A stretch of 64,000 nt of DNA from NCBI GenBank assembly GCA_900617105.1, contig UYFQ01000001.1, positions 3,658,001 through 3,722,000 on the forward strand, given 5' to 3'. The DNA comes from Hydrurus foetidus. Its lineage: Eukaryota. Below, piece after piece: positions 5,834 through 51,341 of the stretch (positions within the stretch are counted from its first letter, which is position 1; each line of letters begins with the position of its first letter). Made by a program: the position numbers and the translations under genes. Under the pieces are notes generated by a model, which was given only the letters and a program-made list of their open reading frames with translations, was not told the origin of the DNA and ran no database searches.

Positions 5834-6289
5834 TCATTCATAAGGGTTTTTGATGCCCAACCCCGCCAACACCGCAATTTCACGCGCTTCCATAGCGTCA
5901 GCATCTAGCACTGAGGTTTCGTGGTCATAGCCCTGGGCATGCAGCGTGCCGTGCACCAGTAAGTGTGCGTAGTGGGCCGCCAGCGTCTTTTTGTTTTCTC
6001 TCGCTTCCTCTGCCACCACCGGCGCGCACAACACCAGGTCAGCCGTGACCAGCGGCGCGCGCGTGTAGTCGAAAGTCAGCACGTTGGTGGCGTAGTCTTT
6101 CTGGCGATAGTCGCGGTTAAGCGCTTGGCCTTCTTCGCTACCTACGATGCGCACGGTGATCTCTGCATCACTTTCAAGCGCATGGCGAATGTAGCGCACA
6201 ACGCTGTGGCGGCTCAAAGCGGCGCGGTGGCGGGCGGCGTCTTTAATATCGCCAAATTGCAGCGATAAAGACAGGTTTTTAAGAGTCAT
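5834..6289 (-). CDS. ybeY: rRNA maturation RNase YbeY
   Basis: NRDYRQKDYATNVLTF and HGTLHAQGYDH motifs. Confidence 0.95.
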   Translation of the reverse strand: MTLKNLSLSLQFGDIKDAARHRAALSRHSVVRYIRHALESDAEITVRIVGSEEGQALNRDYRQKDYATNVLTFDYTRAPLVTADLVLCAPVVAEEARENKKTLAAHYAHLLVHGTLHAQGYDHETSVLDADAMEAREIAVLAGLGIKNPYE

Positions 6290-7292
6290 TTTTGCCTGTA
6301 GCCCTTGTTTTACGTGCGCGAGCAGCTACTTTATTAGTAGCGTTGACGGTATCGGTCGGCGTAGACTGCGCAGCGTCGTACGCATCCACAATTCGCGCCA
6401 CCAGCGGGTGTCGCACTACATCTAGACTGGTCAAGCGCGTGATCGCGATGCCGTTCACGCGCTTTAAGACCCGCTCAGCATCGACCAAGCCGCTGAGCTG
6501 CGTGCGCGGCAAATCGACCTGACTCACATCACCTGTCACCACTGCCTTGCTGCCAAAGCCGACGCGGGTTAAAAACATTTTCATCTGCTCAGGCGTGGTG
6601 TTTTGCGCTTCGTCCAAGATTACAAACGCGTGGTTCAGCGTGCGGCCCCGCATAAAGGCCAGTGGCGCAATTTCAATTTGCTGGCGCTCAAACGCTTTTT
6701 GTACCCGCTCAAAACCCATCAGCTCATGCAGCGCGTCCCACAGCGGGCGCAGGTAGGGGTCGACTTTCTGGCTCAAATCACCCGGCAAAAATCCCAGCCG
6801 CTCGCCCGCTTCCACCGCCGGGCGAGTCAGCACAATGCGCTGTACCGCGCTGCGCTCCAGCGCATCTACCGCGCAGGCTACTGCCAGGTAGGTTTTGCCC
6901 GTACCGGCGGGGCCAATGCCAAAGGTGATGTCATGCGTGGCAATGTTTTCGAGGTAAGCCCCTTGGTTCACGGTGCGGGCGCGCAGGTCAGCGCGCCGGG
7001 TGGTCAGGGTGGGGCTGCCGTCAGCCGACAACTTTAACGCCGTGTCGCCAGACATCATGAGCTGCACGGTTTCCTCGGCAATCGGCCGCTGCGCCATTTC
7101 ATAGAGCGCCTGCAGAACTTCAAGCGCTTGGGTGGCACGCGCCTTCGTGCCGTCAATCTTGAACTGCTCAAAGCGGTGCGCAATTTTGACGTCCAGTCCG
7201 ACCTCAATCGTGCGGATGTGTGCATCCATCGGGCCGCACAAGTGGCCCATTCGGGTATTGTTCGGCGGCGTGAAGGTATGGCGAAGGATCAA
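6279..7292 (-). CDS. phoH: PhoH-family ATPase (YbeZ)
   Basis: GPAGTGKT, RPAVEAGERLGFLPG, DEAQN; TTG start at 7292 inferred. Confidence 0.92.
   Translation of the reverse strand: MILRHTFTPPNNTRMGHLCGPMDAHIRTIEVGLDVKIAHRFEQFKIDGTKARATQALEVLQALYEMAQRPIAEETVQLMMSGDTALKLSADGSPTLTTRRADLRARTVNQGAYLENIATHDITFGIGPAGTGKTYLAVACAVDALERSAVQRIVLTRPAVEAGERLGFLPGDLSQKVDPYLRPLWDALHELMGFERVQKAFERQQIEIAPLAFMRGRTLNHAFVILDEAQNTTPEQMKMFLTRVGFGSKAVVTGDVSQVDLPRTQLSGLVDAERVLKRVNGIAITRLTSLDVVRHPLVARIVDAYDAAQSTPTDTVNATNKVAARARKTRATGKNDS
6294..6341 (-). repeat. 48-bp dyad element copy forming the PhoH C-terminal tail
   Basis: GCTA-ctaataaag-TAGC-tgctcgc-GCAC-gtaaaacaa-GGGC-tacaggc = ATNKVAARARKTRATG. Confidence 0.85.
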
Positions 7293-7373
7293 GGGTTGAA
7301 TGTCCTGAAAATTGGGTTGAACGGCGATTGTCCGCTGATATTCGAGCGCTGGGGTGGCTGATAACATTACCCC

Positions 7374-7946
7374 ATGATTGGAAGAATTCAAGGCTCGCTA
7401 GCCGAAAAGAACCCCCCAGAAATTCTGGTCGACTGCAATGGCGTGGGCTACGAGCTGCTGGTGCCCATGAGCACGTTTTACAACCTGCCTGGTTTGGGCG
7501 AAAAAGTCAGCCTGCTCACGCATTTTGTGGTGCGTGAAGACGCGCAAATCTTGTACGGCTTCGCTACGTCAACCGAACGCGCCGCCTTCAGGCAGCTGGT
7601 CAAAATATCCGGCGTAGGCCCGCGCACCGCACTCAGCGTGCTCAGCGGCATGAGCGTTGAAGAGCTCGCTCAGGCCGTTACGCTGCAGGAAATGGGCCGC
7701 ATCATCAAGGTGCCCGGCATCGGCAAAAAAACCGCCGAGCGTTTGCTGCTGGAACTCAAAGGCAAGCTGGGCGCAGACATCGGCGTGAATGTCTCAATCA
7801 CCAACGACAGCCAGTCAGACATCTTGCAGGCGCTGGTAGCGCTGGGCTACAGCGACCGCGATGCAGCCCTGGCGCTCAAGGCGCTGCCTAAGGACATTGG
7901 GGTGTCTGATGGGATTAAGCTGGCGTTGAAGGCGTTGGCGAAGTAA
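7374..7946 (+). CDS. ruvA: Holliday junction branch migration protein RuvA
   Basis: [27 protein letters not shown] motifs. Confidence 0.97.
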
Positions 7947-7964
7947 CGGAATAAGGTGAATCTA

Positions 7965-9176
7965 ATGCAAATCGAATCACTGCGGCTTAAAAATTTCAGA
8001 TCCTTCAAAGATGTGACATTGAAAGACATACCAAAATTTTGCGTGCTGGTAGGCGCAAATGGAACTGGTAAAAGCACACTATTTTCAGTTTTTGCATTTT
8101 TAAGAGATGCAATGACAACAAATGTCACGGCGGCCTTAGGCCGACTTGGTGGTAGCCGTGGTTTTGCTGAAGTGCGGAGTCGAGGAACCAGTGGTCCAAT
8201 TGAAATAGAGATCAAGCTACGAACTACCTTGTCTGAAGGGCGTTCTAGGTTGATTACATACGAATTACATATCGATGACTCAAGCGGTAGGCCTTCGGTT
8301 GTTTGCGAAATATTGCAGTATCGGCGCGGAAGCCGCGGAAAACCGTGGAAGTTTCTCGATTTTTCCAACGGTGTTGGCGAGGCAGTTACGAACGAACTTG
8401 ACACGGTTACGGATGAGCGTGATCTTGTCCGCGAGCAGCAAACTTTAAAAAGTCCTGACATCCTTGCCATTAAGGGACTGGCTCAGTTTGAACGATTCCC
8501 CGCAGTAGTCGCGCTAGGTAATCTCATTGAAAACTGGCATTTATCCGATTTTCACATCAGCAGAGCACGCCCTGAGGCCGAAGCAGGCTATGCCGAGCAC
8601 TTGTCTCGCGAAGGGGAAAACCTTTCGTTGGTCATCGAATACTTGCATCGAAATCATCTACAAATATTTGAAAAGATACTAAATCGCTTAAAACAATGCG
8701 TACCGGGCGTCACACATGTTGAGGCAAAAACCACCGAGGAGGGGCGAGTTCTTCTTAAGTTTCAAGATGGTGCATTTGAAGACCCTTTTTTGGCGCGATA
8801 CGTTTCAGATGGAACTATCAAAATGTTGGCTTACTTGGTTTTGTTATACGACCCTCATCCCTCTCCTTTGTTGTGTGTTGAAGAACCAGAAAATCAGTTG
8901 TATCCATCTTTACTTTGGGATCTAGCAGAAGAATTTCGGAGGTATGCTGAAAGCGGAGGGCAAGTATTTGTCACAACCCATTCGCCAGATTTTCTTAATG
9001 CAATTGAGTTAAGTGAAGTATTTTGGTTGGTGAAGGCAAACGGATTTACCGACGTACACCGGGCTGCGGATGACCTTCAACTTCAAGCCTACATGCAGGA
9101 CGGCGATCAAATGGGGTATCTTTGGAAACAAGGATTATTTGAAGGTGCAGATCCATCGGTAGGTGGACATGGTTGA
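7965..9176 (+). CDS. ABC-type AAA ATPase (AAA_15/AAA_21, OLD/AbiEii-like)
   Basis: Walker A GANGTGKS, signature SDGT, Walker B CVEEPEN, TTHSP; AT-richer than neighbours. Confidence 0.85.
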   Translation: MQIESLRLKNFRSFKDVTLKDIPKFCVLVGANGTGKSTLFSVFAFLRDAMTTNVTAALGRLGGSRGFAEVRSRGTSGPIEIEIKLRTTLSEGRSRLITYELHIDDSSGRPSVVCEILQYRRGSRGKPWKFLDFSNGVGEAVTNELDTVTDERDLVREQQTLKSPDILAIKGLAQFERFPAVVALGNLIENWHLSDFHISRARPEAEAGYAEHLSREGENLSLVIEYLHRNHLQIFEKILNRLKQCVPGVTHVEAKTTEEGRVLLKFQDGAFEDPFLARYVSDGTIKMLAYLVLLYDPHPSPLLCVEEPENQLYPSLLWDLAEEFRRYAESGGQVFVTTHSPDFLNAIELSEVFWLVKANGFTDVHRAADDLQLQAYMQDGDQMGYLWKQGLFEGADPSVGGHG

Positions 9177-9732
9177 AAATCTCGTTATCCTGCTAGAAGA
9201 GCCATCGGCTAAAGATTTTTTGCAGGCAATTCTCCCAACGATGTTGCCGAGCCATATCACTCCAATTTTTATAGTCTTTGAAGGTAAGCAAGATCTAGAA
9301 AAGCAGTTGGTCAGAAAATTGAGGGGTTGGTTGCGACCGCATTCAGCATTTCTAGTCATGCGCGATCAAGACGGTAGCGATTGTTTGGATGTCAAAAATC
9401 GGCTTGTGGCACTTTGTGCTGAAGCTGGTAAACCTGATGCAATAGTCAGGATCGCGTGTCGTGAACTGGAGTCTTTCTTTTTGGGAGATTGGCAAGCCAT
9501 AGCACAAGCCTACGCTAGGCCGTCGTTAAGTAACCATGCCAGAACTGCAAAATACAGAAGTCCTGATAACTTGGGAAGCCCAAGTCTGGAATTAAAGCGC
9601 GTTATTCCCAACTATCAAAAACGCGAGGGTGCACGCCGCATTGCTCCGAACCTAGAACTAGTACCAGGCAGGAATCGATCTCAAAGCTTCAATGCGCTTA
9701 TTGCATCACTCAAAAAGTTTGCGGTTGCATGA
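9163..9732 (+). CDS. DUF4276-like (TOPRIM-like) protein
   Basis: LLEEPS..., [15 protein letters not shown] motifs; overlaps ATPase stop and ruvB start. Confidence 0.7.
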
Positions 9733-10793
9733 CCATTCAAACCGACGACTTCAACCTGGCCGACCTGCCGCCCTCACGGCGCGTCATGTCTGCCGCACCT
9801 GATTCCCCCAAAGAAGAAGCGATTGAGCGCGCCCTGCGCCCCAAGCTGTTTGACGAATATGTCGGCCAGACTAAGGTGCGCGACCAGTTGGAGATTTTTA
9901 TTGGCGCTGCCAAAAAACGCAGCGAGGCGCTTGACCACGTGCTGCTGTTTGGCCCGCCGGGTTTGGGCAAAACCACGCTGAGTCACATTATTGCGCATGA
10001 GCTAGGCGTGAACATGCGGCAAACCAGTGGCCCGGTGCTTGAAAAACCCAAAGACCTGGCGGCGCTGCTCACGAATCTGGAAAAGAACGATGTGCTGTTC
10101 ATCGACGAGATTCACCGCTTAAGCCCGGTGGTTGAAGAGATTTTGTACCCGGCGCTGGAAGACTACCAAATCGATATCATGATCGGCGAAGGCCCAGCCG
10201 CTCGCAGCATCAAGCTTGATTTGCAGCCCTTCACGCTGGTGGGTGCCACCACGCGTGCCGGCATGCTGACCAACCCGCTGCGTGACCGTTTTGGCATCGT
10301 TGCGCGGCTGGAGTTTTATACCGCTGAAGAGTTGGCGAAAATCGTTAAACGCAGCGCCGGGCTGCTCAATGTGCCGACTGACGCGGAAGGCGGCTTTGAG
10401 ATTGCCAAACGTTCGCGCGGCACACCGCGCATCGCCAACCGTCTGCTACGCCGTGTGCGCGACTTTGCTGATGTGAAGGGCAAAGGTGAGATCACCCTTA
10501 GCATCGCCAACCAAGCGCTCGCCATGCTAGACGTCGACCCGCAAGGTTTTGACGTGATGGACCGCAAGCTGCTCGAATGCGTGATTCACCGCTTCGACGG
10601 CGGCCCCGTTGGGCTGGACAACATAGCCGCCAGCATTGGTGAAGAGCGTGACACGATTGAAGACGTGATTGAACCGTATTTAATTCAACAGGGCTATTTG
10701 CAGCGCACGCCGCGTGGGCGTATTGCTACGTTGGCGGCATACCGGCATTTGGGCGTTGCTCCCCCAGCTTCTGGCGCCGAGCTGTTCACTTAG
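9729..10793 (+). CDS. ruvB: Holliday junction DNA helicase RuvB
   Basis: [23 protein letters not shown] motifs. Confidence 0.98.
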
Positions 10794-33582: not shown

Positions 33583-34635
33583 ATGAAATCCCTTGTATTG
33601 ATTCTCGGCGCGGGCGCGAGCAAAGAAGTCAACCTGCCCATAGGAACGGAGCTCAAGTCTGAAATAAGTCGTTTGCTTGATATTCGATTCCAACATGGTT
33701 TTCGGCAAGAAAGTGGTGACGACCAAATCACTAATGCGCTGCGCTTTATCGCGTCAAAAGACAAAGAGCAGGCAGAACAAATCAACCCTTTTCTGCACAT
33801 GTGTTGGCGCATCCGCGATGCGATGCCACAAGCAATATCCATCGACAACTTCATTGACAGTCACGCTGACGAGCCAAAGATCGCCTTGTGCGGCAAGCTG
33901 GCAATCGCTCGCGCCATATTGGCCGCAGAAGGTAGGAGTGCCCTCGCCATCAATCCAAACAACATCAACAATAAGCTTAACTTTACTAAGTGCACGACAA
34001 CTTGGTTTAACGCCTTTTTTCAGCTGCTGACAGAAAATTGCCGAATTGAGGATTTGCCCGCACGTCTTAAAAGCATTGCAATTGTGACTTTCAACTATGA
34101 CCGCTGCGTTGAACACTTCATGTTCAACGCAATCCAGAACTACTATAGCGTAAATGCAGAAAAAGCCGCCGAGCTCCTTACAAACCTAGAGATCCATCAC
34201 CCCTACGGAATGGTTGGAGGCCTCCTATGGATGAGACGCAATAGTTCAATAGGGTTTGGCGCTGAAGCTCATGTCGCTGACTTGGTAACCGTCTCGCAGC
34301 AACTTAGGACGTTCACCGAAGGGACCGACCCAGTGGTCAGCGACATCAATCAAATTCGCTCAACCGTCGCCGATGCTAAAAGGCTCGCTTTCTTGGGATT
34401 TGCATTCCATCGTTTGAATATGGAACTACTGTTTGACAGTAAATCGTTGCCGAAAAAGAGGACGACTCAAGGCGTCTTTGGAAGCGCATTAGGCATATCT
34501 GCCAGCGACTGCACTGTGATTACAAACGAACTCTCAGCACACACTGGCCTGGTAAGTGGCTCAATACAACTCCGAAATGATTTGACCTGCGCGGCCCTCG
34601 TTCAAGAATACTGGCGTAGCCTATCGCTGGTTTAG
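33583..34635 (+). CDS. SIR2-like / AbiH-like protein, candidate defence NADase
   Basis: LILGAGAS, IVTFNYD, HPYG, FLGFAF motifs; atypical codon usage. Confidence 0.7.
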   Translation: MKSLVLILGAGASKEVNLPIGTELKSEISRLLDIRFQHGFRQESGDDQITNALRFIASKDKEQAEQINPFLHMCWRIRDAMPQAISIDNFIDSHADEPKIALCGKLAIARAILAAEGRSALAINPNNINNKLNFTKCTTTWFNAFFQLLTENCRIEDLPARLKSIAIVTFNYDRCVEHFMFNAIQNYYSVNAEKAAELLTNLEIHHPYGMVGGLLWMRRNSSIGFGAEAHVADLVTVSQQLRTFTEGTDPVVSDINQIRSTVADAKRLAFLGFAFHRLNMELLFDSKSLPKKRTTQGVFGSALGISASDCTVITNELSAHTGLVSGSIQLRNDLTCAALVQEYWRSLSLV

Positions 34636-40090: not shown

Positions 40091-40118
40091 GTCATGTTGT
40101 TCCTGCTTGGAGATCACG

Positions 40119-40394
40119 ATGAACACAAAACTTACCCTGCGGATGGATGAAAACCTGATTGTCCAAGCCAAGGCTTATGCGGCAAAAGAAGGGCGATCTG
40201 TTTCTGATTTAGTGAGTGCGTATTTCGCCAGGCTGGCTGACGCAAAGAAATCTTCTGACGCTAAGGCTTACCCCCTGACCAGTGCGCTAGTGGGTGCCGC
40301 CGCGCCCCGCCGCAGCTCGTTTTACGGTTTGATGGAGGGCAGCAAACTGGACGAGTCTGACTACTACGCCTACCTTGAGCAAAAGCACAAATGA
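40119..40394 (+). CDS. RHH antitoxin (DUF6364-like)
   Basis: MNTKLTLRMD..AKAYA..GRSVSDLV...YLEQKH. Confidence 0.75.
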   Translation: MNTKLTLRMDENLIVQAKAYAAKEGRSVSDLVSAYFARLADAKKSSDAKAYPLTSALVGAAAPRRSSFYGLMEGSKLDESDYYAYLEQKHK

Positions 40395-40825
40395 CGACAT
40401 CAATGACAGTGTCAGCCGTGGTCTTGCTTGACACCAACGTCATCGTTGATCTTTTCTTGCAAAGGCAAGCTTTTGTTGAAGACGCCAACACCCTTGTCCT
40501 GCTGATCGAGGACGGAAAACTCCAGGCTAGCCTGTGCGCCAACACCGTCACCACGATTGACTACCTTCTGTCAGGTGCGCTAGGCAGGCTGGTTGCGCGG
40601 GGGCACATCAAGCGCCTGTTGAAAACGTTTGACATTGCACCTGTCAATCGGCGTGTGCTGCAAGACGCGGCTGAGTCAAACCTCAAAGACTTTGAAGACG
40701 CCGTCATTGCCGAATCTGCCAAGGCCAGCGGCATACCCACCATCATCACGCGCAACGGCAAAGACTTTGTGGGCTGTGGTTTGAATGTGTATTCGCCAGG
40801 CCAGTGGCTGGCAGCTAAGCATTAA
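40391..40825 (+). CDS. PIN-domain (VapC-like) toxin
   Basis: LLDTNVIVD, DFEDA, ITRNGKDF. Confidence 0.85.
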   Translation: MTTSMTVSAVVLLDTNVIVDLFLQRQAFVEDANTLVLLIEDGKLQASLCANTVTTIDYLLSGALGRLVARGHIKRLLKTFDIAPVNRRVLQDAAESNLKDFEDAVIAESAKASGIPTIITRNGKDFVGCGLNVYSPGQWLAAKH

Positions 40826-41481: not shown

Positions 41482-43359
41482 ATGTGCGGCATAGTTGCAG
41501 CGGTTTCTAACCGCAATATCGTCCCAGTCTTGGTGCAAGGCTTGCAGCGGCTGGAATACCGGGGCTATGACTCTTGTGGCGTTGCGGTGTATGCCGGTGG
41601 CCTGAAAAGAGCCCGCAGCACATCGCGCGTGGCTGAGCTGCAAGAACAAGTGCAAAACGACAAGCTCGAAGGCACCACAGGCATTGCCCACACGCGCTGG
41701 GCCACGCACGGCGCGCCAGCTATTCACAACGCGCATCCGCACTTTAGCCACGGCACGGGTGCGGTAACCAAGCCAGGCACTAAAAGCGAAGGTGCTACTG
41801 GCAAGCCAGCGCGCGTGGCGTTGGTCCACAACGGCATCATTGAAAACCACGAAGACCTGCGCGCCGCTTTGCAAGCCAAAGGCTATGTGTTTGAAAGCCA
41901 AACCGACACCGAAGTTATCGTGCATTTGGTCGACAGCTTGTATGACGGTGATTTGTTTGAAGCTTTAAAAAGCGCAGTCGGCCAACTGCACGGCGCTTAT
42001 GCGATTGCTGCATTTTGCAAAGACGAGCCGCACCGCGTGGTGGGCGCGCGGGCGGGTTCACCGCTGATTTTGGGCGTCGGCAAAGCCAACCAAGAAAACT
42101 TTTTAGCTAGTGATGCGATGGCTTTGGCTGGCGTGACGGACCAGATCGTGTACCTTGAAGAAGGCGATTTGATTGACATTCAGCTCGGCAAATACTGGAT
42201 TTTGGACAAGGCGCAAAAAGCGGTGCAGCGCGAGGTAAAAACCGTGGTCGCTCACAGCGGCGCGGCTGAGTTGGGCCCGTACCGCCACTACATGCAAAAA
42301 GAAATTTTTGAGCAACCCAGTGCCATTGCCAACACGCTGGAAGGTGTGGAGAGCATCACGCCAGAACTCTTCGGCGACGGCGCTTACCGCGTTTTTCAAG
42401 ACATCGATTCGGTGCTTATTTTGGCCTGTGGCACCAGCTACTACAGCGGCTGTGTGGCCAAGTATTGGTTAGAAGAAATTGCAGGCATCTCAACCCAGGT
42501 CGAAGTCGCCAGCGAATACCGCTACCGCACCAGCGTACCCAACCCGCGCACGCTGGTGGTGACCATCACGCAAAGTGGGGAGACCGCCGACACGCTTGCC
42601 GCACTGCGCCACGCACAAAGCTTGGGCATGACGCAAACGCTGACGATTTGCAACGTAGCCACATCGGCCATGGTGCGCGAATGCAAGCTGGCCTACGTCA
42701 CGCGTGCCGGGGTAGAGATTGGCGTGGCATCGACCAAAGCTTTTACTGCGCAACTGGCGGGGCTGTTTTTACTGACACTGGCCCTTGCCCAAAGCAAAGG
42801 CCGCCTGAGCGATGCTGAAGAAGCAGCCCACGTCAAAGCCATGCGCCACTTGCCTGTGGCTTTGGCCGCTGTGCTGGCGCTAGAACCTCAAGTAATCGCC
42901 TGGGCTGAAGACTTTGCAAAACAAGAAAACGCCCTGTTCTTGGGCCGTGGCCTTCACTACCCGATTGCACTGGAAGGCGCGCTAAAACTCAAAGAAATCA
43001 GCTACATCCACGCTGAAGCCTACCCCGCAGGCGAGCTAAAACACGGCCCATTAGCGTTAGTGACCAGCGCCATGCCGGTAGTCGCCGTTGCACCCAACGA
43101 CAGCCTGCTGGAAAAGCTGAAAAGCAACCTGCAAGAAGTCCGCGCACGCGGCGGCGTGCTGTACGTGCTGGCCGACGCAGGCACCAAGTTAGTCAGCAGC
43201 GAAGGCCTTCACGTCATTCGCATGCCAGAACACTACGGCCCGCTAAGCCCGATGCTGCATGTGGTGCCGCTACAGCTGCTGGCTTATCACACGGCGGTTG
43301 CGCGGGGGACGGATGTGGACAAGCCTAGGAATTTGGCGAAGTCAGTCACCGTTGAGTGA
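41482..43359 (+). CDS. glmS: Glutamine--fructose-6-phosphate aminotransferase
   Basis: [24 protein letters not shown]. Confidence 0.98.
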
Positions 43360-43764
43360 CCAAGGATTCACCAGCCCCACGCCCGTACCTGCAAAGTCCG
43401 ACTCGTTTCGCGTCACCACGGTAAAGCCGTGCTCAAGCGCAGTTGCTGCAATCATGGCATCGCGCTCTGAGCGGGGGTTAGGCACATGCAGCGCAGCGCA
43501 CACCGTAGCGGTGATGTCGGTGAACGTCAAAATTTGGCCGGCGAACGCTTCACGCACGCCAGCCAGCCAGGTTCGTAGCGCGCTTCCCTGCGGCGGGGTG
43601 CGTCTTTCTAACGCCAACACGCCCATCTCCAATTCAAGGACGGTGATGGCTGACAAGAAAAGTTTGCTGCTGGGCTGCCTAGCTGCCCAAGCCCGAACCT
43701 CTAGGGATTGATGAGGTTTGCCGCGCCGCAGCTCAGAGATGACATTGGTATCCAGCACAAACAT
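43342..43764 (-). CDS. vapC: VapC PIN toxin
   Basis: [29 protein letters not shown]. Confidence 0.9.
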
Positions 43765-43783
43765 GAATCGCCCTCAATCAAAC

Positions 43784-44044
43784 TTATTCAAACGTGGTGC
43801 CTTGAACGGTGAGATTGAGGCGAGGCGGCTCGAAATCGATGTTGTCCCCGCCCGCAATGCCGTCCATCACGTCGAGCAGTGAAGACGGTTTTTGCCCAGC
43901 AATACGGTAGTAGTCATTAATTTCAAGCAGCGCAAAAGCCGGTCGTCCCCGGTCTGTGATGAACACAGGGCCGTTGGCAGTTGCACGCTTGGCTGCAGAC
44001 ACGTCACGGGTGAAGTCGCGGCTGGAGAAGGTGTGGATGGCCAT
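43784..44044 (-). CDS. Phd/YefM antitoxin
   Basis: SSRDF..AKRA..GPVFITDRGRP. Confidence 0.88.
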   Translation of the reverse strand: MAIHTFSSRDFTRDVSAAKRATANGPVFITDRGRPAFALLEINDYYRIAGQKPSSLLDVMDGIAGGDNIDFEPPRLNLTVQGTTFE

Positions 44045-44258: not shown

Positions 44259-47200
44259 ATGAATAAACTAATTAGCGTGCCGATAGCAGCCGTTACTTCG
44301 CTATCAGCAGAGGCCGCCGTGACTGTGATTCGCGAAACTTTGCGCGCAGAATGCCGTTACAGCGGACAAAGTCCGACTGCACTGACAGTCTCTAGTCGCC
44401 TCACAATTGCTGATGGCGGCATTGACGCAGATGTGAATACAACATTGGGGCTACCGGTTCCAACAGACTGCCTCTTTCAGGCCGGTTTGACGGGTTTTCA
44501 GATCAAGTCAGGAACCAGCTTCAAGCCGTGGACAGCGAGCTCTATCCGAGCCGAGCTTCTGGATAGTAAAGGCAAGCTTTACAGCGAAGTTCAACGGTTG
44601 GTGCAGCGAAGCGGCCGCTACGCATTAATTTGCACTGGCCACGATCTAACTCCCAAGCAGCGAAATGAGGCCAAAGATCAAATTGCGTTGGTGCTCAAAA
44701 ATGCTGGTTTCCCTGGACATGACCCATTGATCGATGTCTTTGGTGCTAGTCAATTGGCTGAGTATATTGAGCGTTACCCGGGCGTGGCGGCTAAAGTAAC
44801 AACGGATCCCATTCAAGAAGCGCTTGTTTTTGATGAGTGGGTGCGCGACGACCACATGTCGAATTCGTTCGAAATGTCCAAGGATCAAAGTAACCTGATC
44901 GATCAAATTCGACAGGCCTTGTTTGGATCTGCTAAACATGTCCGTGTGCTGGGTGAGCCCGGCCTAGGCAAAACTCGTCTTGTTCTTGAGGCGTTACGGG
45001 ATGAAAACCTCGCCCCTATCGCTTTGTACATTGAGCATGGCTCCATGTTTGGTAGCACTAGGCTTTTTCGTAAGTTACTGAAATCGCCATACAACAAACC
45101 ACTCGTCCTTGTCATAGACGAATTGCCAGAGCAGGAAATGGCCGAAATCTGGCGGCATCTAAAAGCAAGGTGTGGGGCGTTGAAAATTGTGTCGTTAGAT
45201 CACGGTCGCGATGAGACGCAGGATACCGATATACAGAGAATCTATGCTCCGCCTCTATCGGCTGAAACAATCAAGAAAATTTTGATAAACAGGCTGGGTG
45301 ATTCTCGCGAGTTGGATCGTTGGGTCGAGATATGTGAGGGATCTCCAAGGGTTGCACAAGCCGTTGCTGACAACTTGCGCGCAAACCCTGCTGACTTACT
45401 ACGCCCACCAGCTACAGTTCCCATTTGGGATCGATTTCTGCACGGTTACGGTAAGCGAGACGAGCAACACGCTCGGCAAATTGACTGCGTTACGCAGTAT
45501 TTGGCATTGTTCAATCGATTCGGATTCGATGACCCGGTTGGCGACGAAGCACGCTACATCGCTGATTTAGTTGCCATGGTTGACCCGACTATCGGTTGGG
45601 CTCGGTTTCAAGAGATCGTGCAAAGTCTGCGTGCGCGGCGAGTGTTGCAGGGTACAAGGACCTTGTTTTTTGTGCCGAAGGCGTTGCATATCTACCTATG
45701 GCAGAGATTTTGGGCAAACTACGGCAGGGGATTTGACTTTACAGATACCTTCAACACTATGCCTGAGTCACTTCATGCATGGTTTATGAATATGTTCAAG
45801 TACGCTGGCGATGCGGCGACTGCACACGTAATTGAGGACATTCTCAAACCTGATGGCATCTATTCCGATAGCGCAACTCTGACATCCGCGAAAGGTGCAC
45901 GATTCCTTTCGACACTGACTGAAGCCAACCCTGTCGCAGTCCTGAGACTGTTGGAGTCCGCATTGGGGTCGTGGTCGGACGAAGAGATTACGTCTTTTAA
46001 AGAGAATCGCCAGACATTGGTTTGGACTTTGGAAAAGGTTGTAGTCTGGCCTCAGCAATGTGTACGCGGAATTCGTCTGCTCATAAAACTTGCGGTCAAC
46101 GAAACCGATACAAATAGCAACAATGCAACTGGCACTCTCCGAGGGTTTTTCTGCATAGGACCAGAGGCTGCGGCAACGGAGGCATCCCCCGCCGAACGAC
46201 TGCCTGCACTTCTTCCACTACTGCGGTCTTCCATTAACAAGGAGCGCGAGTTAGGACTAAGTTGCATCGCGGCTGCATTGGACACCCATGGGCGCGGCTA
46301 TCGAATAGTTGGGCCAGAGTTTCAGGGACTCAAACCGCGTGCAAAATTGTGGATTCCCAAAACTTACGGCGATTGGTGGGATGCACAGCACCTATATTTC
46401 AAGACGCTGATCGACGAGACGGCGCATTGGCCTGATCATCTGAGGTCCACGGCGTGCAGTGCGTTGCTCGGTGCAATACAACAACAAATCAAAGTAAAGC
46501 CATGCACTCAACTTGCCTTTGACGTACTTGGCGCATTGGTTCGTGATCCCAACATGAATTCAAGTGAACTCAACAAATTTTTTGTGGATTGGCCCGAACA
46601 TCATGATCAACCGGAAATCAAAGACATCACGGACAGGATTGTCTCGATAGGTCGCTCGTACACGAAGCAGAGTTTGACCAATCGCTTTCAGCGATATGTT
46701 GTGGATGTTGACTGGCGAACTTGGGATGAAGATACACGTAAACGGCGAGGAAAACGGAACAATCGCGCTAAACCACTGGTCAATGGGCTCGCCAAGCGCG
46801 TGGCAACGGATACTGAACTGTTTGATTCGATATTGCCGTTTCTTTCGCCTGGGAAGGAATCTCCAGCTTTGTGGCACTTTGGAGATCGACTTGCAAGCAA
46901 TGATCCTAAGAGATTTTTGCTGGATAAATTAATTTCACAAGCACTGGCGTCTAAACATTGGGGGTGCTTGGGAGGCTACTTATCTTTCGTTCAAAAGCAC
47001 GATATTCCGGCGTTCCGTACAGCTGTCACTTGCTTGCTGTCGAGTGCTGGCACTGCCTGGCTCGGTGCCGCGCTGACGGTACGTGGTGAGTACGACGAAA
47101 TACTGTTTGATGGGTGCTTGGTAGCCTTTGGAAAAAAATGGATAGAGACTAAGCAGTTTTCCGCTGTGCGATACGGGCAAATGTGGGAAAAAATCCCGTC

Positions 47201-48035
47201 ATCAACGTTAAAGCGCCTAATTCAAATGCTAAGTGACGAAGAGGACGCTACATCAATTGGGCTATTGATTGGCCTCTTTTATGACCTACCGTTCACCGCA
47301 ACTTCTCCCTTTGACAGTGCCACTGTTTTTTCTGCTCTTCGCAGAGCCATCCCAAGCGAGAACGGATGGGACGATTCGCGTGGATACGATTGGGAGAACG
47401 CTTGCAAAAAGCTCATTGAATTTAACAACTACTTTGCAATGCCATTGTTGGATGCTTTGCTGACAGAAATGGGGCACCACTACCAACTGACCTATGACAG
47501 TTATGTTGAATCCGTAACCTTGGAGTTGGTTAAAGCCAATCCTGTCGGCGCATGGCAAATAATTTCACGGCACTTTGAGGCAACGCTGCCCAAGTGGCGA
47601 TCCGATCTGACGTGTTGGCTTAAGGGCGGGCTTGCCAAATTTCAAGACAACGCGGAGAGTGCTCCCATCAATTTGCTTCCGATTGACTCGATAATTTCGT
47701 GGATTGACGTTAACCCTCAGGCGCGTGCTGGCCTAATTGGCCACTGTGTTCCTGGCACTCTTGATCGTGAAGCGGGCGGAAAGTTATCCATGTTGCTAAT
47801 CGCAAAGTATGCTTCCATTGACGGGGTAAAAAACGGCATCAGCGCAGCTTTTCACTCTGGTGGGTGGACAGGTCCTACCAGCCATTATTTAAAGAAAAAA
47901 CGAGAGAAATTACGCAATTGGTTAACAGATGGATTTGAATTCGAAGTGACCCAGTGGATTGAGGCTGAACTTGAATACATAGATAGAGGCATTGACCGTG
48001 AGGAAATTGCGGAAGAGCGAACACGGTTTGAGTGA
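44259..48035 (+). CDS. PD-(D/E)xK nuclease + STAND-like NTPase + helical repeats; candidate Avs/NLR-type defence protein
   Basis: DGGID...FQIKSG; Walker A GEPGLGKT; Walker B LVLVIDE; G.P motif (CEGSPR); ~850-aa helical C-terminus. Confidence 0.65.
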   Translation: MNKLISVPIAAVTSLSAEAAVTVIRETLRAECRYSGQSPTALTVSSRLTIADGGIDADVNTTLGLPVPTDCLFQAGLTGFQIKSGTSFKPWTASSIRAELLDSKGKLYSEVQRLVQRSGRYALICTGHDLTPKQRNEAKDQIALVLKNAGFPGHDPLIDVFGASQLAEYIERYPGVAAKVTTDPIQEALVFDEWVRDDHMSNSFEMSKDQSNLIDQIRQALFGSAKHVRVLGEPGLGKTRLVLEALRDENLAPIALYIEHGSMFGSTRLFRKLLKSPYNKPLVLVIDELPEQEMAEIWRHLKARCGALKIVSLDHGRDETQDTDIQRIYAPPLSAETIKKILINRLGDSRELDRWVEICEGSPRVAQAVADNLRANPADLLRPPATVPIWDRFLHGYGKRDEQHARQIDCVTQYLALFNRFGFDDPVGDEARYIADLVAMVDPTIGWARFQEIVQSLRARRVLQGTRTLFFVPKALHIYLWQRFWANYGRGFDFTDTFNTMPESLHAWFMNMFKYAGDAATAHVIEDILKPDGIYSDSATLTSAKGARFLSTLTEANPVAVLRLLESALGSWSDEEITSFKENRQTLVWTLEKVVVWPQQCVRGIRLLIKLAVNETDTNSNNATGTLRGFFCIGPEAAATEASPAERLPALLPLLRSSINKERELGLSCIAAALDTHGRGYRIVGPEFQGLKPRAKLWIPKTYGDWWDAQHLYFKTLIDETAHWPDHLRSTACSALLGAIQQQIKVKPCTQLAFDVLGALVRDPNMNSSELNKFFVDWPEHHDQPEIKDITDRIVSIGRSYTKQSLTNRFQRYVVDVDWRTWDEDTRKRRGKRNNRAKPLVNGLAKRVATDTELFDSILPFLSPGKESPALWHFGDRLASNDPKRFLLDKLISQALASKHWGCLGGYLSFVQKHDIPAFRTAVTCLLSSAGTAWLGAALTVRGEYDEILFDGCLVAFGKKWIETKQFSAVRYGQMWEKIPSSTLKRLIQMLSDEEDATSIGLLIGLFYDLPFTATSPFDSATVFSALRRAIPSENGWDDSRGYDWENACKKLIEFNNYFAMPLLDALLTEMGHHYQLTYDSYVESVTLELVKANPVGAWQIISRHFEATLPKWRSDLTCWLKGGLAKFQDNAESAPINLLPIDSIISWIDVNPQARAGLIGHCVPGTLDREAGGKLSMLLIAKYASIDGVKNGISAAFHSGGWTGPTSHYLKKKREKLRNWLTDGFEFEVTQWIEAELEYIDRGIDREEIAEERTRFE

Positions 48036-48171
48036 AGCATCTTTCTGGGACCGGCTGTCAGTGCAGGACATTGATGACGAGCTGGAATTCCCCCAAATCG
48101 GTCGGCAGCTACCACCTGACTTAAAGTCACAAGTCATTTCAAAAATCTGGAGCGGTTAAATCTTTATTCCT

Positions 48172-50211
48172 TTGGCCGACGCCAACGCTGTCCCCACCGG
48201 CGTTTTTTCTACCGACCCTTGCGCTGTTGAAAAAGAGTTACGCCACGTGCGCGCACTCATGCAACTTGAGCAAAACGAAGACGCGGCGCAGTTCAAACTC
48301 AAAAATGCCAAGGCCAGCATCGGGGAGCGCCAGCGGCGCGGCTTGACTTGGTACCCCATCACCATCACCAAGGAAGACATCGGCTTTGGCGGCAAAGTGG
48401 TGCTGGAGCTGGAGCGCCCTGCTGGCGAGCAAGGGCTGCACTTGTTTCAGGTGGGCAAGAATGCGTCGCTGTTTAGCAATGCGCCCGGCTACTCAGCTAC
48501 CGACCGACCTGCGCTTAATGGCGTTATTACCAGTGTGCGGCGCAACAAGCTGCTGCTGGCAACCACCAAGGAAGAGCTTCCTGACTGGATAAATGAAGGG
48601 GGCAAGCTGGGCATCGATTTAACCTTCGATGAGGTGAGCTACCGCGAGATGGAGAACGCGCTGAGCGAAGTGATGCGCGCACGTGACAACCGCTTGGCCG
48701 AGCTGCGCGATGTGCTGCTGGGCGCCCGGCAGGCGAGCTTTCGTGCGCACAAGGCCGACGATCTGTTCTACCCCAGCCCACTCAACGACTCGCAGCTGGC
48801 GGCCGTGCGCCACGTGATAACAGCGCAAGACGTGGCCATCATCCACGGCCCGCCCGGCACTGGCAAAACCACCACACTGGTGCAGGCCATCCTGGAAACC
48901 ATCCGGCGTGAGCGGCGTGTGCTGGTGTGCGCACCGTCGAACACGGCCGTGGACCTGCTCACTGAAAAGCTGGCCGAGCGCGGCGTCAACGTCATCCGTA
49001 TGGGTAACCCCAGCCGCGTATCAGACTTGCTGCTGCAGCACACCCTCGATGCGCGCGTGATGGCTCACCCGAGCTACGCCAAGATGCGCGCGATGCGCGA
49101 GACCGCCGCGCAGCACCGCAACACTGCCAGCCAAAGTGCCGACGTGCATGCCCGCCAATTTGGCTTTGAAGGGCGGGAACAGCGCCGGCAGTTAAGAGAC
49201 GAAGCCCGAACGCTTTCGCAAGCAGCCGACGACCTGGAGCGCTTTATCACCGAAGACGTGCTCGACTCGGTGCAGGTTATTACTAGCACGCTGGTGGGTG
49301 CCAGCAACCGCAACATTCGCCACCTGACTTTCGAGACCGTCTTCATCGACGAAGCCGCCCAGGCGCTGGAACCGGGCTGCTGGATTCCGATTGCCAAGGG
49401 CCAGCGCGTGGTGTTGGCGGGCGACCACCACCAGCTACCACCCACTGTGAAAAGCGAAAAAGCTGCAAGAGAAGGCCTGCGCGAAACGCTGTTTGAAAAG
49501 TGCATCAAGCGCCAGCCAGACACGGCCCGCATGCTGACCGTGCAGTACCGCATGCACGAGCAAATCATGGCGTTTAGCTCCGAGCAGTTTTATGGCGGCC
49601 AATTGGAGGCGCACACTAGCGTGCGCCACGTCGATTTGGAAGCGTACGACGAAAGTTTCGCGCCCGACCTGCCTGTGGAATTCATCGACACGGCTGGTCT
49701 AGGCTTTCTTGAAATCACCATTCCCGAAAGCCGCTCCACGGCCAACCCTGAAGAAGCGGATTTACTGCTCAGGCGTCTCGCCGAGCTGCTGGAACGCTAC
49801 GACTCGGCCGCGCACGATCACGACGCGCTCATGTCGCTTTCCATCGGCGTGATTGCCCCCTACCGCGCCCAAATCAATTATTTGAAAGACGCCATCGAAG
49901 AAAACGACGCGCTCAACGGTCTGCAACAGAAGCGCATGCTCAGCGTGGGCACGGTCGATTCGTTTCAGGGCCAAGAGCGCGACATCATTGCTATTTCACT
50001 GACGCGTAGCAACAGCCATGGCGAGATCGGTTTCTTGTCAGACATCCGCCGCATGAACGTGGGCATGACCCGCGCTCGCCGCAAATTACTGCTCGTCGGC
50101 GACTCTTCTACGCTCAGCTCTAATACGTTTTTCAAGGACTTGCTGGCCCACGTGAAGCGCATGGGTGGCTACCGCACCGAACAATCGGCGAACAACGAAA
50201 AATCGCAATGA
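48172..50211 (+). CDS. Upf1/IGHMBP2-like SF1B helicase
   Basis: GPPGTGKT, SNTAVD, DEAAQ, GDHHQL, QYRM, VDSFQG, NVGMTRAR. Confidence 0.9.
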   Translation: MADANAVPTGVFSTDPCAVEKELRHVRALMQLEQNEDAAQFKLKNAKASIGERQRRGLTWYPITITKEDIGFGGKVVLELERPAGEQGLHLFQVGKNASLFSNAPGYSATDRPALNGVITSVRRNKLLLATTKEELPDWINEGGKLGIDLTFDEVSYREMENALSEVMRARDNRLAELRDVLLGARQASFRAHKADDLFYPSPLNDSQLAAVRHVITAQDVAIIHGPPGTGKTTTLVQAILETIRRERRVLVCAPSNTAVDLLTEKLAERGVNVIRMGNPSRVSDLLLQHTLDARVMAHPSYAKMRAMRETAAQHRNTASQSADVHARQFGFEGREQRRQLRDEARTLSQAADDLERFITEDVLDSVQVITSTLVGASNRNIRHLTFETVFIDEAAQALEPGCWIPIAKGQRVVLAGDHHQLPPTVKSEKAAREGLRETLFEKCIKRQPDTARMLTVQYRMHEQIMAFSSEQFYGGQLEAHTSVRHVDLEAYDESFAPDLPVEFIDTAGLGFLEITIPESRSTANPEEADLLLRRLAELLERYDSAAHDHDALMSLSIGVIAPYRAQINYLKDAIEENDALNGLQQKRMLSVGTVDSFQGQERDIIAISLTRSNSHGEIGFLSDIRRMNVGMTRARRKLLLVGDSSTLSSNTFFKDLLAHVKRMGGYRTEQSANNEKSQ

Positions 50212-50251
50212 CACTCAGACTCCAATTTAGCTTTTTTTGCCTATTTATTAG

Positions 50252-50299
50252 GTCTTTAGCCCAATAAATACAGGCGCAAGCAGCTGCGATTTACATAGC
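50252..50299 (-). repeat. 48-bp dyad element copy at the right edge of the accessory block
   Basis: GCTA-tgtaaatcg-CAGC-tgcttgc-GCCT-gtatttatt-GGGC-taaagac. Confidence 0.85.
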
Positions 50300-50327
50300 A
50301 TGTATAGCACTGAAAAACCGCCCGAGT

Positions 50328-51341
50328 TCAGTTCACCTGCAGCTTGAAAGCAGCCCGAATCTCCCCGACCGGGTTGCCACGCGCGTTGCGCAGCGTTTGC
50401 TCGCCCCAAGGTTTGAGGATTTCACGCTGGGCATCGTCCAGCCAGCCGAGTTGCTCTAGCGCCACCACTGCCGCCGTGTACAGCGCGGGCATGTGGCCGC
50501 TGATGACTTTGATCGCAATGCCTTGGCCGCGGCTTTTGCTGGCGATGGTTTGCACGCCGTCTGCCCCGATTTTGGTTAGCCAGTCCCCGCGCCCGGCGCG
50601 CATGAAGTCCAGGTCGTTGCGGCCTGTGCCTGACACCATTTCTGGGTGGGCCACCATCGCGTTGCTCAGCAATTCAAAGTGTTCGCCAAATTCAGCGTCT
50701 TGTGCGCCGCTGGCCAGGCGGGCAAAGCTCAACGCCAGCTTGGACAAGGGAAGGGCGTAGTTGGGGGCTGAGCAGCCGTCTGTGCCAGCAACCAAATCAG
50801 ACTCATCGCACTGCGCAACTGCAGCCACTTGCGTGCGAATCGCCACTTGCAGCGGGTGCGCCATGTCTAAATGGTTTTCAAGCGGCAAGCCGTGCTGCAC
50901 GCAGTGCGCCACAAAGCCGGTGTGTTTGCCGCTGCAGTTGTTGTGGCGCTCGTCGTATTGCAAACCGGCGGGTGCTGGCAGGCCGCCGTAGCTAAACGAC
51001 AGCGGCACGTGGCAGCCGCACTGCAGCGTGCGGTGCGTTTTGCCAATTTTGTGCAGCATGTCGTCCACTTGCGCAACGTGCATGTCCTCTCCGTTGTGGC
51101 TGGCGCACAGCAGGGCAATTTGTGGCGGGGTAAAACCAAAATGCTCAGGCCCGCCGCCTTGCAAAAACGGCAGGGCTTGAAACGGTTTGAGGGTGGAGCG
51201 GGTGAAAGTCAGCGCGTTGGCATCGCCGGCGCTGGCAACCAGTTTTCCGCGCGTGTCGACGACTGCAATCGCACCTGCGTGAACCACCTCGGCCATGGTG
51301 CCGCGCGTGTGTTCGATGAGGGGAATAAATGACGACAACAT
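50328..51341 (-). CDS. L-asparaginase II (Rhizobium AnsA-type)
   Basis: RSTLKPFQ, ASHNGE, NNCSGKH, DGCSAP. Confidence 0.88.
   Translation of the reverse strand: MLSSFIPLIEHTRGTMAEVVHAGAIAVVDTRGKLVASAGDANALTFTRSTLKPFQALPFLQGGGPEHFGFTPPQIALLCASHNGEDMHVAQVDDMLHKIGKTHRTLQCGCHVPLSFSYGGLPAPAGLQYDERHNNCSGKHTGFVAHCVQHGLPLENHLDMAHPLQVAIRTQVAAVAQCDESDLVAGTDGCSAPNYALPLSKLALSFARLASGAQDAEFGEHFELLSNAMVAHPEMVSGTGRNDLDFMRAGRGDWLTKIGADGVQTIASKSRGQGIAIKVISGHMPALYTAAVVALEQLGWLDDAQREILKPWGEQTLRNARGNPVGEIRAAFKLQVN

Follow-up and report, generated by a model that had tools for sequence, protein, structure and literature searches.

A probable anti-phage receptor distantly related to Avs8A that joins Mrr-like nuclease, STAND NTPase and HEAT-like sensor modules in a single chain

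We analysed a 64,000-nucleotide stretch of contig UYFQ01000001.1 (assembly GCA_900617105.1, Hydrurus foetidus; positions 3,658,001 to 3,722,000 of the forward strand), called the window here, and in particular one gene at 44259..48035, whose intact open reading frame (ORF) starts with ATG and encodes 1258 amino acids (aa). Its product is compared below with Avs8A, a protein of the defence system formerly called PD-lambda-4, which was reportedly described by Vassallo et al. 2022. The features of the gene are the following.

44259..48035, plus strand: whole receptor gene, 1258 aa, with Mrr-like nuclease, STAND NTPase and HEAT-like sensor (Avs8-like), from the ORF and its translation
44259..44813, plus strand: putative N-terminal PD-(D/E)xK, Mrr-like nuclease domain (about residues 1-185), from AlphaFold2 secondary structure and hhalign to Mrr_cat
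44412-44426 and 44499-44507, plus strand: predicted catalytic motifs D52-GG-I-D56 and Q81-I-K83, invariant in 47 and in 39 sequences
44856..45878, plus strand: STAND-type P-loop NTPase with nucleotide-binding domain (NBD), helical domain and winged helix (about residues 200-540), from Foldseek and VIA-align
44952..44975, plus strand: Walker A, G232-EPGLGK-T239, with G235, G237 and K238 invariant (47 sequences)
45102..45122, plus strand: Walker B, L282-VLVID-E288, a DE pair, with D287 invariant (47 sequences)
45339..45356, plus strand: G361-S-P-R-V-A366, with R364 and A366 invariant, within helix H363-375 of the model
45879..48032, plus strand: all-helical C-terminal solenoid, predicted ligand sensor (residues 541-1258), from AlphaFold2, Foldseek and hhalign
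47844..48032, plus strand: conserved tail F1198-HSGGWTGP-1206 and long terminal helix, from conservation in the close clade

The preliminary description of this gene had listed a D-x-G-I-D...Q-x-K motif, GEPGLGKT, LVIDE, GSP and GGWTGP, and all of these were found where it had placed them in the translation: D52-G-G-I-D56 and Q81-I-K83 near the N-terminus, Walker A (G232-EPGLGK-T239), Walker B (L284-V-I-D287-E288) and G361-S-P363 in the NTPase, and G1201-G-W-T-G-P1206 near the C-terminus. Residues D52, G54, D56, Q81, K83, G235, G237, K238, D287, R364 and A366 are invariant in an alignment of 47 sequences that reaches down to 18% identity and includes the true Avs8A proteins, and the motifs therefore exceed chance. 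We take G361-S-P-R-V-A366 to be the 'GxP' helical-domain motif of STAND proteins. The end of the protein had also been called Trp-rich; the GGWTGP segment is there, and the richness in Trp is only mild, consisting of W1148, which is invariant in 39 sequences, and the further residues W1203, W1221 and W1233. The foreign composition noted earlier was borne out by a GC content of 0.487-0.495 over the gene in 2-kb windows (0.49 overall) compared to 0.576-0.592 in the nearest flanks (42001-44000 and 48001-51000).

AlphaFold2 models were built for residues 1-560 and 541-1258 from alignments of 47 sequences. The first model (predicted local distance difference test score, pLDDT, 88.3; predicted template modelling score, pTM, 0.85) gives an alpha/beta order at the N-terminus of H17-34, E42-44, E57-60, E77-83, H93-116 and E120-125, where D52 and D56 lie just ahead of the second strand and Q81-x-K83 forms part of the third. 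Such a placement of the acidic residues and the QxK is the usual PD-(D/E)xK layout. Because Pfam Mrr_cat (PF04471) matched none of 39 family members at E <= 0.01, we used a profile-profile test with controls, in which the Mrr_cat profile was made of 25 domains from genomes where they pass the Pfam cut-off. In this test, hhalign matched the nuclease domain to Mrr_cat over 132 columns with a probability of 88.8% and E 2.4e-6, aligning DGGID and QxK of the protein with DgGiD and QcK of Mrr_cat, and 11 controls with reversed or shuffled columns gave probabilities of at most 3.5%. As a lead only, the nearest named clusters in the ESM Atlas to residues 1-190 were Mrr_cat at 0.90, annotated as restriction endonucleases. 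The VIA-align rows barely reach residues 1-184.

For residues 1-560, the best Foldseek matches in the PDB were Avs3 (8dgc, 1.8e-9) and Avs4 (8dgf, 1.6e-8), followed by NLRP2, SAMD9, ZAR1, ORC/Cdc6 and Apaf-1. VIA-align placed Apaf-1, CED-4 and NRC over 250-323 residues, all within model residues 189-560, at Z 11.3-11.9 (Apaf-1, Z 11.3-11.5 over 293-323 residues; the NRC1 NB-ARC, Z 11.9), and these alignments cover the NBD, helical and winged-helix parts. At the level of sequence, Pfam and NCBIfam gave weak AAA_16 and AAA_22 matches to the protein, the rest being sub-threshold, and among the 39 members weak Pfam matches were obtained to AAA_16 (in 19), nSTAND_NTPase5 (in 1) and nSTAND6 (in 1). 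A sequence search of the PDB returned nothing meaningful, with a best E of 0.15 for the single sequence and 0.04 for a 27-sequence profile.

The model of residues 541-1258 (pLDDT 89.6, pTM 0.78) has 41 helices and zero strands, so the long helical C-terminus that had been described holds for the last 718 residues. The structures matched by Foldseek were SF3B1, importin-beta, transportin, PP2A-A and CAND1, at E 5e-5 to 1e-3 and TM 0.17-0.45, and no tetratricopeptide repeat (TPR) protein and no Avs sensor stood among the matches listed. The proposal of a HEAT/ARM-like rather than a TPR sensor is thus upheld, at the level of a generic solenoid. Together, the Mrr_cat profile match, the Avs3 and Avs4 matches to the STAND-type NTPase and the HEAT-like solenoid agree with the effector-NTPase-sensor architecture that the preliminary description had proposed. 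Within the close clade, the most variable part of the protein is residues 750-1100 of the sensor.

The relation to a known system came from PADLOC, where PD-Lambda-4_A (model PDLC03991) was the sole strong match (E 9.6e-39, 131 bits), aligning residues 15-995 with profile positions 14-1014 of 1283. Avs8 is the present name of PD-lambda-4, and Avs8A consists of an Mrr nuclease and a STAND NTPase (bioRxiv 10.1101/2025.07.02.662641; here and below, statements from this preprint and from PMC13581612 refer to the accessible parts of the two texts). BLASTP aligned the protein with one true Avs8A at 24% identity over 748 aa (E 2e-27) and with a second at 22% over 713 aa (E 5e-15), in both cases with a colinear C-terminal tail besides, which in true Avs8A reads FHPRAWSGS. 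When 35 members of the window's clade were compared by hhalign with three true Avs8A proteins, each module matched: the nuclease with a probability of 99.3 (E 1.9e-20), the NTPase with 99.4 (E 1.9e-21) and the sensor with 100 (E 4.5e-41, 687 of 718 columns). The two halves of the sensor also matched the Avs8A sensor each alone (3.3e-24 and 8.8e-22). Judged by these profiles, the protein is homologous to Avs8A in every module, sensor included.

The same comparisons place the protein outside Avs8A proper. In a FastTree of 133 full-length rows, which included three true Avs8A proteins and for which the root was assumed, support was Shimodaira-Hasegawa (SH)-like only and compositional heterogeneity was flagged, the three true Avs8A proteins fell on one side of a branch with support 100, and the window protein was not inside their clade but within a 13-row subclade, also with support 100. 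On this tree the protein belongs to a large sister clade of true Avs8A. The earlier suggestion of a possibly uncharacterised family is accordingly weakened by the direct PADLOC match to a described Avs type and by the module-by-module homology; what stays of it is a separate clade and a score of 131 bits, where true members exceed 1000. The gene thus likely encodes a described kind of anti-phage sensor rather than a new type. Our overall reading, which we hold to be probable, is that a single chain combines an Mrr-like nuclease, a STAND NTPase and a HEAT-like sensor, is distantly homologous to Avs8A over its full length, and is predicted to serve as an anti-phage pattern-recognition receptor.

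The family is large. A word-indexed search returned 645 homologues, the best 120 of which are 55-89% identical to the window protein, mostly 1257-1258 aa long and, in those cases where a source gives a name, called hypothetical, 'ATP-binding' or 'P-loop NTPase family' proteins. An exhaustive search with residues 1-1200 returned 2627 representative clusters at E <= 1e-3 and 610 at <= 1e-30; most of the top 150 clusters are about 1220-1360 aa and colinear over their full length, and the others are shorter pieces. Close relatives were located at eight genome loci, in an unclassified proteobacterium (88%), in Undibacterium (80%) and, at 55-59%, in Mariprofundaceae, Thiohalomonadales, Alteromonadaceae, Competibacteraceae, Fibrobacteria and Aquirhabdus. 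Members of the close clade (55-89% identity) turn up here and there in Beta-, Gamma- and Zetaproteobacteria, Citrifermentans and Fibrobacteria, a distribution that is cross-phylum and patchy. Some members of the wider family (P0133, P0134, P0138, P0142, P0147 and others) carry an extra 60-120 N-terminal residues, and among the 39 members scanned, one bears an MqsA/HTH_XRE-type domain (E 8.8e-15); this suggests that the nuclease-STAND core sometimes gains a DNA-binding or antitoxin-like head.

No source among the matches listed gave the window's clade a family name, and PADLOC 2.0, NCBIfam 20 and Pfam hold no dedicated model for it. It is not discussed in the literature found under 'PD-lambda-4' or 'Avs8', the large supplementary tables of PMC13581612 not being covered, and the accessions of six close homologues are absent from seven supplementary files of that paper, which likely do not include the clade and cluster tables. 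As PMC13581612 distinguishes 589 STAND clades and 684 structural clusters of sensors, a clade and cluster number for this family may well already stand in its supplementary tables.

The neighbours of the receptor gene that were considered as partners or as marks of its context are the following.

41482..43359, plus strand: glmS, 53% identical to the glmS of locus L004; the accessory stretch starts at the 3' end of glmS
43342-43764, minus strand: PIN toxin VapC (Pfam PIN, 4e-17)
43784-44044, minus strand: Phd/YefM antitoxin (Pfam PhdYeFM, 3.2e-4)
48172-50211, plus strand: superfamily 1 (SF1) Upf1-like helicase, 679 aa (AAA_11/AAA_12), matched by PADLOC MkoA at 3.7e-97 over the helicase core only

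Upstream of the receptor gene lie glmU, a DUF6364/PIN_3 pair, an AsnC regulator, glmS and a convergent Phd/VapC pair (43342-44044), in which the VapC ORF runs antisense into the final 18 bases of glmS; downstream lie the SF1 helicase and then asparaginase II. Neighbouring ORFs (50 aa or longer, no more than 4 kb away) in the window and at the eight related loci were compared all against all by BLASTP, and Pfam domains were assigned to 42 adjoining ORFs of the related loci. No partner gene was shared among these nine places, the sole real cross-locus protein match being glmS between L004 and the window. The Phd/VapC pair has no equivalent common to the related loci and is therefore an adjoining accessory module, not a conserved partner. 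The helicase was likewise rejected as a partner: its GC content is host-like, it is unlinked at all related loci, and the MkoA matches are to the generic SF1 core. Of 101 genomes from the family to which genome G001 belongs, 3 contain homologues of the helicase (79-82%), not adjoining glmS, and none was found in G001 itself at E <= 1e-20. No neighbour in the window matches any PD-Lambda-4 model, and none beside the true Avs8A loci matched PD-Lambda-4_B either.

At L002 the order is gyrB, Abi_2, an NTase_sub_bind (nucleotidyltransferase-substrate-binding) protein, the receptor homologue and ParE/Phd, and at L004 it is glmS, Fic, the receptor homologue and an integrase fragment. Toxin-antitoxin modules thus adjoin the gene in the window and at L002, and glmS precedes it in the window and at L004. 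This context fits an accessory, horizontally moving defence gene.

A conserved element of about 50-90 nucleotides directly follows the stop codon of the homologue at three of the eight loci, which belong to distant genomes (L003:11774-11960, L005:11771-11960 and L006:11771-11930). BLASTP among short ORFs had presented it as a small conserved downstream ORF; the conservation is of DNA, with stops in the other frames, and the element was therefore read as an attC-like site rather than a partner gene. It starts with TAACAAAGCGC... and has a GTTAG/T-like end. Its bottom-strand hairpin is imperfect at L006 (z -2.6) and reaches a z of only -0.5 and -0.8 at L003 and L005. The element looks like an integron attC site; none was seen after the gene in the window. 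Upstream of the L006 homologue, L006:4937-8000 contains a tyrosine recombinase fragment, encoded on the opposite strand by a 99-aa ORF (Phage_integrase E 1.8e-23), palindromes of the form GTTGACGCCGCGC...GCGTCAAC in 3 copies, and three copies of a 108-nucleotide repeat, spaced at about 1 kb around small genes (SDR, glyoxalase), features that give this region the apparent layout of a chromosomal integron cassette array.

Three further observations were made in the window. Two toxin-antitoxin-like pairs bracket AsnC-glmS, namely DUF6364 and PIN_3 (40107-40825, plus strand) and the Phd/YefM and VapC pair (43342-44044, minus strand). A second islet of low GC content (0.47-0.51) lies at 7956-9732 on the plus strand between phoH (6279-7391) and ruvB (9729-10793); it encodes a 406-aa AAA_21/AAA_15 ATPase and a 189-aa protein, whose matches to the PADLOC HEC-01 models score 656 and 233 bits, and on the strength of these matches is a candidate two-gene defence system. 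Finally, a 350-aa ORF at 33583-34635 (plus strand), within a stretch of low GC content (0.50), has no Pfam match at 1e-5 and a weak PADLOC match to Aga_SIR2 (E 3.8e-6).

Several results weigh against reading the gene as an Avs8A-like defence receptor, or at least against carrying the properties of Avs8A over to it. We calibrated the PADLOC PD-Lambda-4_A model on a sample of 401 genomes from the class to which one relative belongs, where 11 genomes matched at E <= 1e-10. Three of these held true Avs8A-level proteins (1129, 1083 and 1019 bits), one had two contig-end pieces (496 and 233 bits), one was intermediate (310 bits), and six scored 68-175 bits. The 131 bits of the window protein do not reach the level of true members (1019-1129 bits), and the same holds for its clade, since 34 of 36 representatives scored 72-150 bits and the other 2 were unmatched at 1e-20. 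Identity to true Avs8A is 17-19% in the nuclease, 18-21% in the NTPase and 16% in the sensor, and branches of 0.56 + 0.56 + 1.05 substitutions per site separate true Avs8A from the window's 129-row clade beyond L016. Because of this low per-domain identity and these long branches, ligand specificity may differ from that of true Avs8A. Nucleotide handling or hydrolysis may differ as well, since Walker B ends in DE throughout the window's clade, where the three true Avs8A proteins (L012, L013 and L014) have DN; the Walker motifs of KpAvs8 are degenerate (PMC13581612). Within the protein, Clp/Hsp104 AAA+ NBDs are level in Z (about 12) with the STAND proteins in VIA-align, over about 195 residues, and the failure of all 39 members to match Pfam Mrr_cat counts on the same side. 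As to context, the neighbours at L003, L006 and L007 are mostly housekeeping genes, known defence genes stand at only some related loci, and a consensus scan found no sigma-70-like promoter.

By analogy with Avs8A, Avs3 and Avs4, the protein would be autoinhibited at rest, and one copy of a conserved phage protein would dock onto its C-terminal solenoid. Binding would permit nucleotide-dependent oligomerisation, probably into tetramers; in the oligomer, the N-terminal nuclease domains would come together and cut DNA without sequence specificity, and this cleavage would abort the infection. The protein would do so without a partner gene. Avs8A itself defends alone, Avs8B being dispensable, it binds lambda gpE with a dissociation constant of 127 nM, its DNase activity is switched on by the capsid protein, and it tolerates capsid proteins of less than 15% mutual identity (bioRxiv 10.1101/2025.07.02.662641). 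In PMC13581612, Avs8 is among the families that sense the major capsid protein. On this analogy, we would tentatively name an HK97-fold major capsid protein as the ligand, at slightly under an even chance, and otherwise another core phage protein.

The alternative that survives best keeps the same architecture and output and supposes that the ligand of the sister clade is some core phage protein other than the HK97 major capsid protein. The distance of its sensor from that of true Avs8A (just 16% identity) and the length of the inter-clade branches speak for it, as does the variability of residues 750-1100, which are the least conserved part of the sensor even in the close clade; moreover, the helical sensors of different Avs families are directed at 13 different phage proteins (PMC13581612). 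Homology with the Avs8A sensor nevertheless extends over 687 of the 718 columns, and because Avs8A tolerates capsid proteins of less than 15% identity (bioRxiv 10.1101/2025.07.02.662641), recognition of the capsid at the level of its fold could survive such divergence. We give this alternative serious weight while doubting it. A bolder form, in which a very large Avs8 sister family (2627 representative clusters of solo genes of about 1260 aa, found in several bacterial phyla) would have its sensor retuned off the HK97 capsid and would move as single-gene cassettes into attC sites and a glmS hotspot, seems to us unlikely, if worth keeping in mind; if true, the family would be among the most widespread uncharacterised Avs receptors in environmental bacteria.

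Two other readings fare far worse. The gene could encode a STAND protein for signalling or housekeeping, or could be silent, non-functional cargo, as might be expected from the interspersion of defence and non-defence STAND clades (PMC13581612), from the related loci that have housekeeping neighbours only and from the empty promoter scan; we find this quite improbable given an intact frame, the constant length of most of the best 120 of 645 homologues, invariant catalytic and Walker residues, a nuclease as effector, foreign composition and a patchy, cross-phylum distribution. Least probable of all is an NTP-dependent Mrr or type IV restriction enzyme that reads modified or foreign DNA directly and uses its helical region as a scaffold, for although the N-terminal domain is Mrr-like and its nearest ESM Atlas clusters are annotated as restriction endonucleases, the NTPase covers the NBD, helical domain and winged helix as in Apaf-1, CED-4 and NRC and has Avs3 and Avs4 as its top Foldseek matches, the 718-residue solenoid has the ligand-binding sensor of Avs8A as its homologue, and the Avs8A DNase is switched on by a protein (bioRxiv 10.1101/2025.07.02.662641).

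An Avs8A-like anti-phage receptor thus remains our preferred reading of the gene. It reveals no new principle of immunity. If the prediction holds, the capsid-sensing Avs8 type would reach beyond enterobacterial proteins into a much larger, more divergent clade in environmental bacteria from several phyla, and the 3.8-kb gene would be a single-gene receptor able to travel as a stand-alone cassette. The clade would also provide natural sensor variants for studying the recognition of a viral fold by a helical solenoid and the extent to which specificity drifts.

Compared with known systems, the N-terminal domain shares with Mrr_cat (PF04471) a 132-column profile match and aligned catalytic motifs, and differs in serving as the putative N-terminal effector of a 1258-aa STAND protein and in reaching Pfam significance in none of 39 members. 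Avs3 (8dgc, terminase-bound) and Avs4 (8dgf, PhiV-1 portal-bound) are the top two structural matches to residues 1-560 and follow the same logic of effector, STAND module and helical sensor. However, the protein has no sequence-level match to any PDB chain, the TM-scores are low (0.26-0.31), and its sensor resembles HEAT solenoids rather than the Avs3 and Avs4 sensors among the matches listed. Avs4 has an Mrr-like nuclease, and Avs3 and Avs4 form tetramers. Both points are given in part in the accessible text of bioRxiv 10.1101/2025.07.02.662641.

Avs8A is the nearest of the known systems. It differs from the window protein in sequence (22-24% local and 16-21% per-domain identity), in PADLOC score (1019-1129 compared to 131 bits), in clade and in Walker B (DN rather than DE). 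No Avs8B-like neighbour was found here with the PD-Lambda-4 models or among the neighbours at related loci. The hosts differ too, being environmental Beta-, Gamma- and Zetaproteobacteria and others for the present clade, and, in the accessible texts, E. coli and a second enterobacterium, as indicated by the name KpAvs8, for the characterised Avs8 proteins. By contrast, the general design is the same. Both proteins are about 1260-1280 aa long and run in the same order from Mrr-like nuclease through P-loop STAND NTPase to a long helical sensor and the same conserved C-terminal tail; they have the D..D..QxK and GxGK motifs in common, and all their modules are homologous at the profile level. Avs8A acts alone, and the gene described here likewise stands solo.

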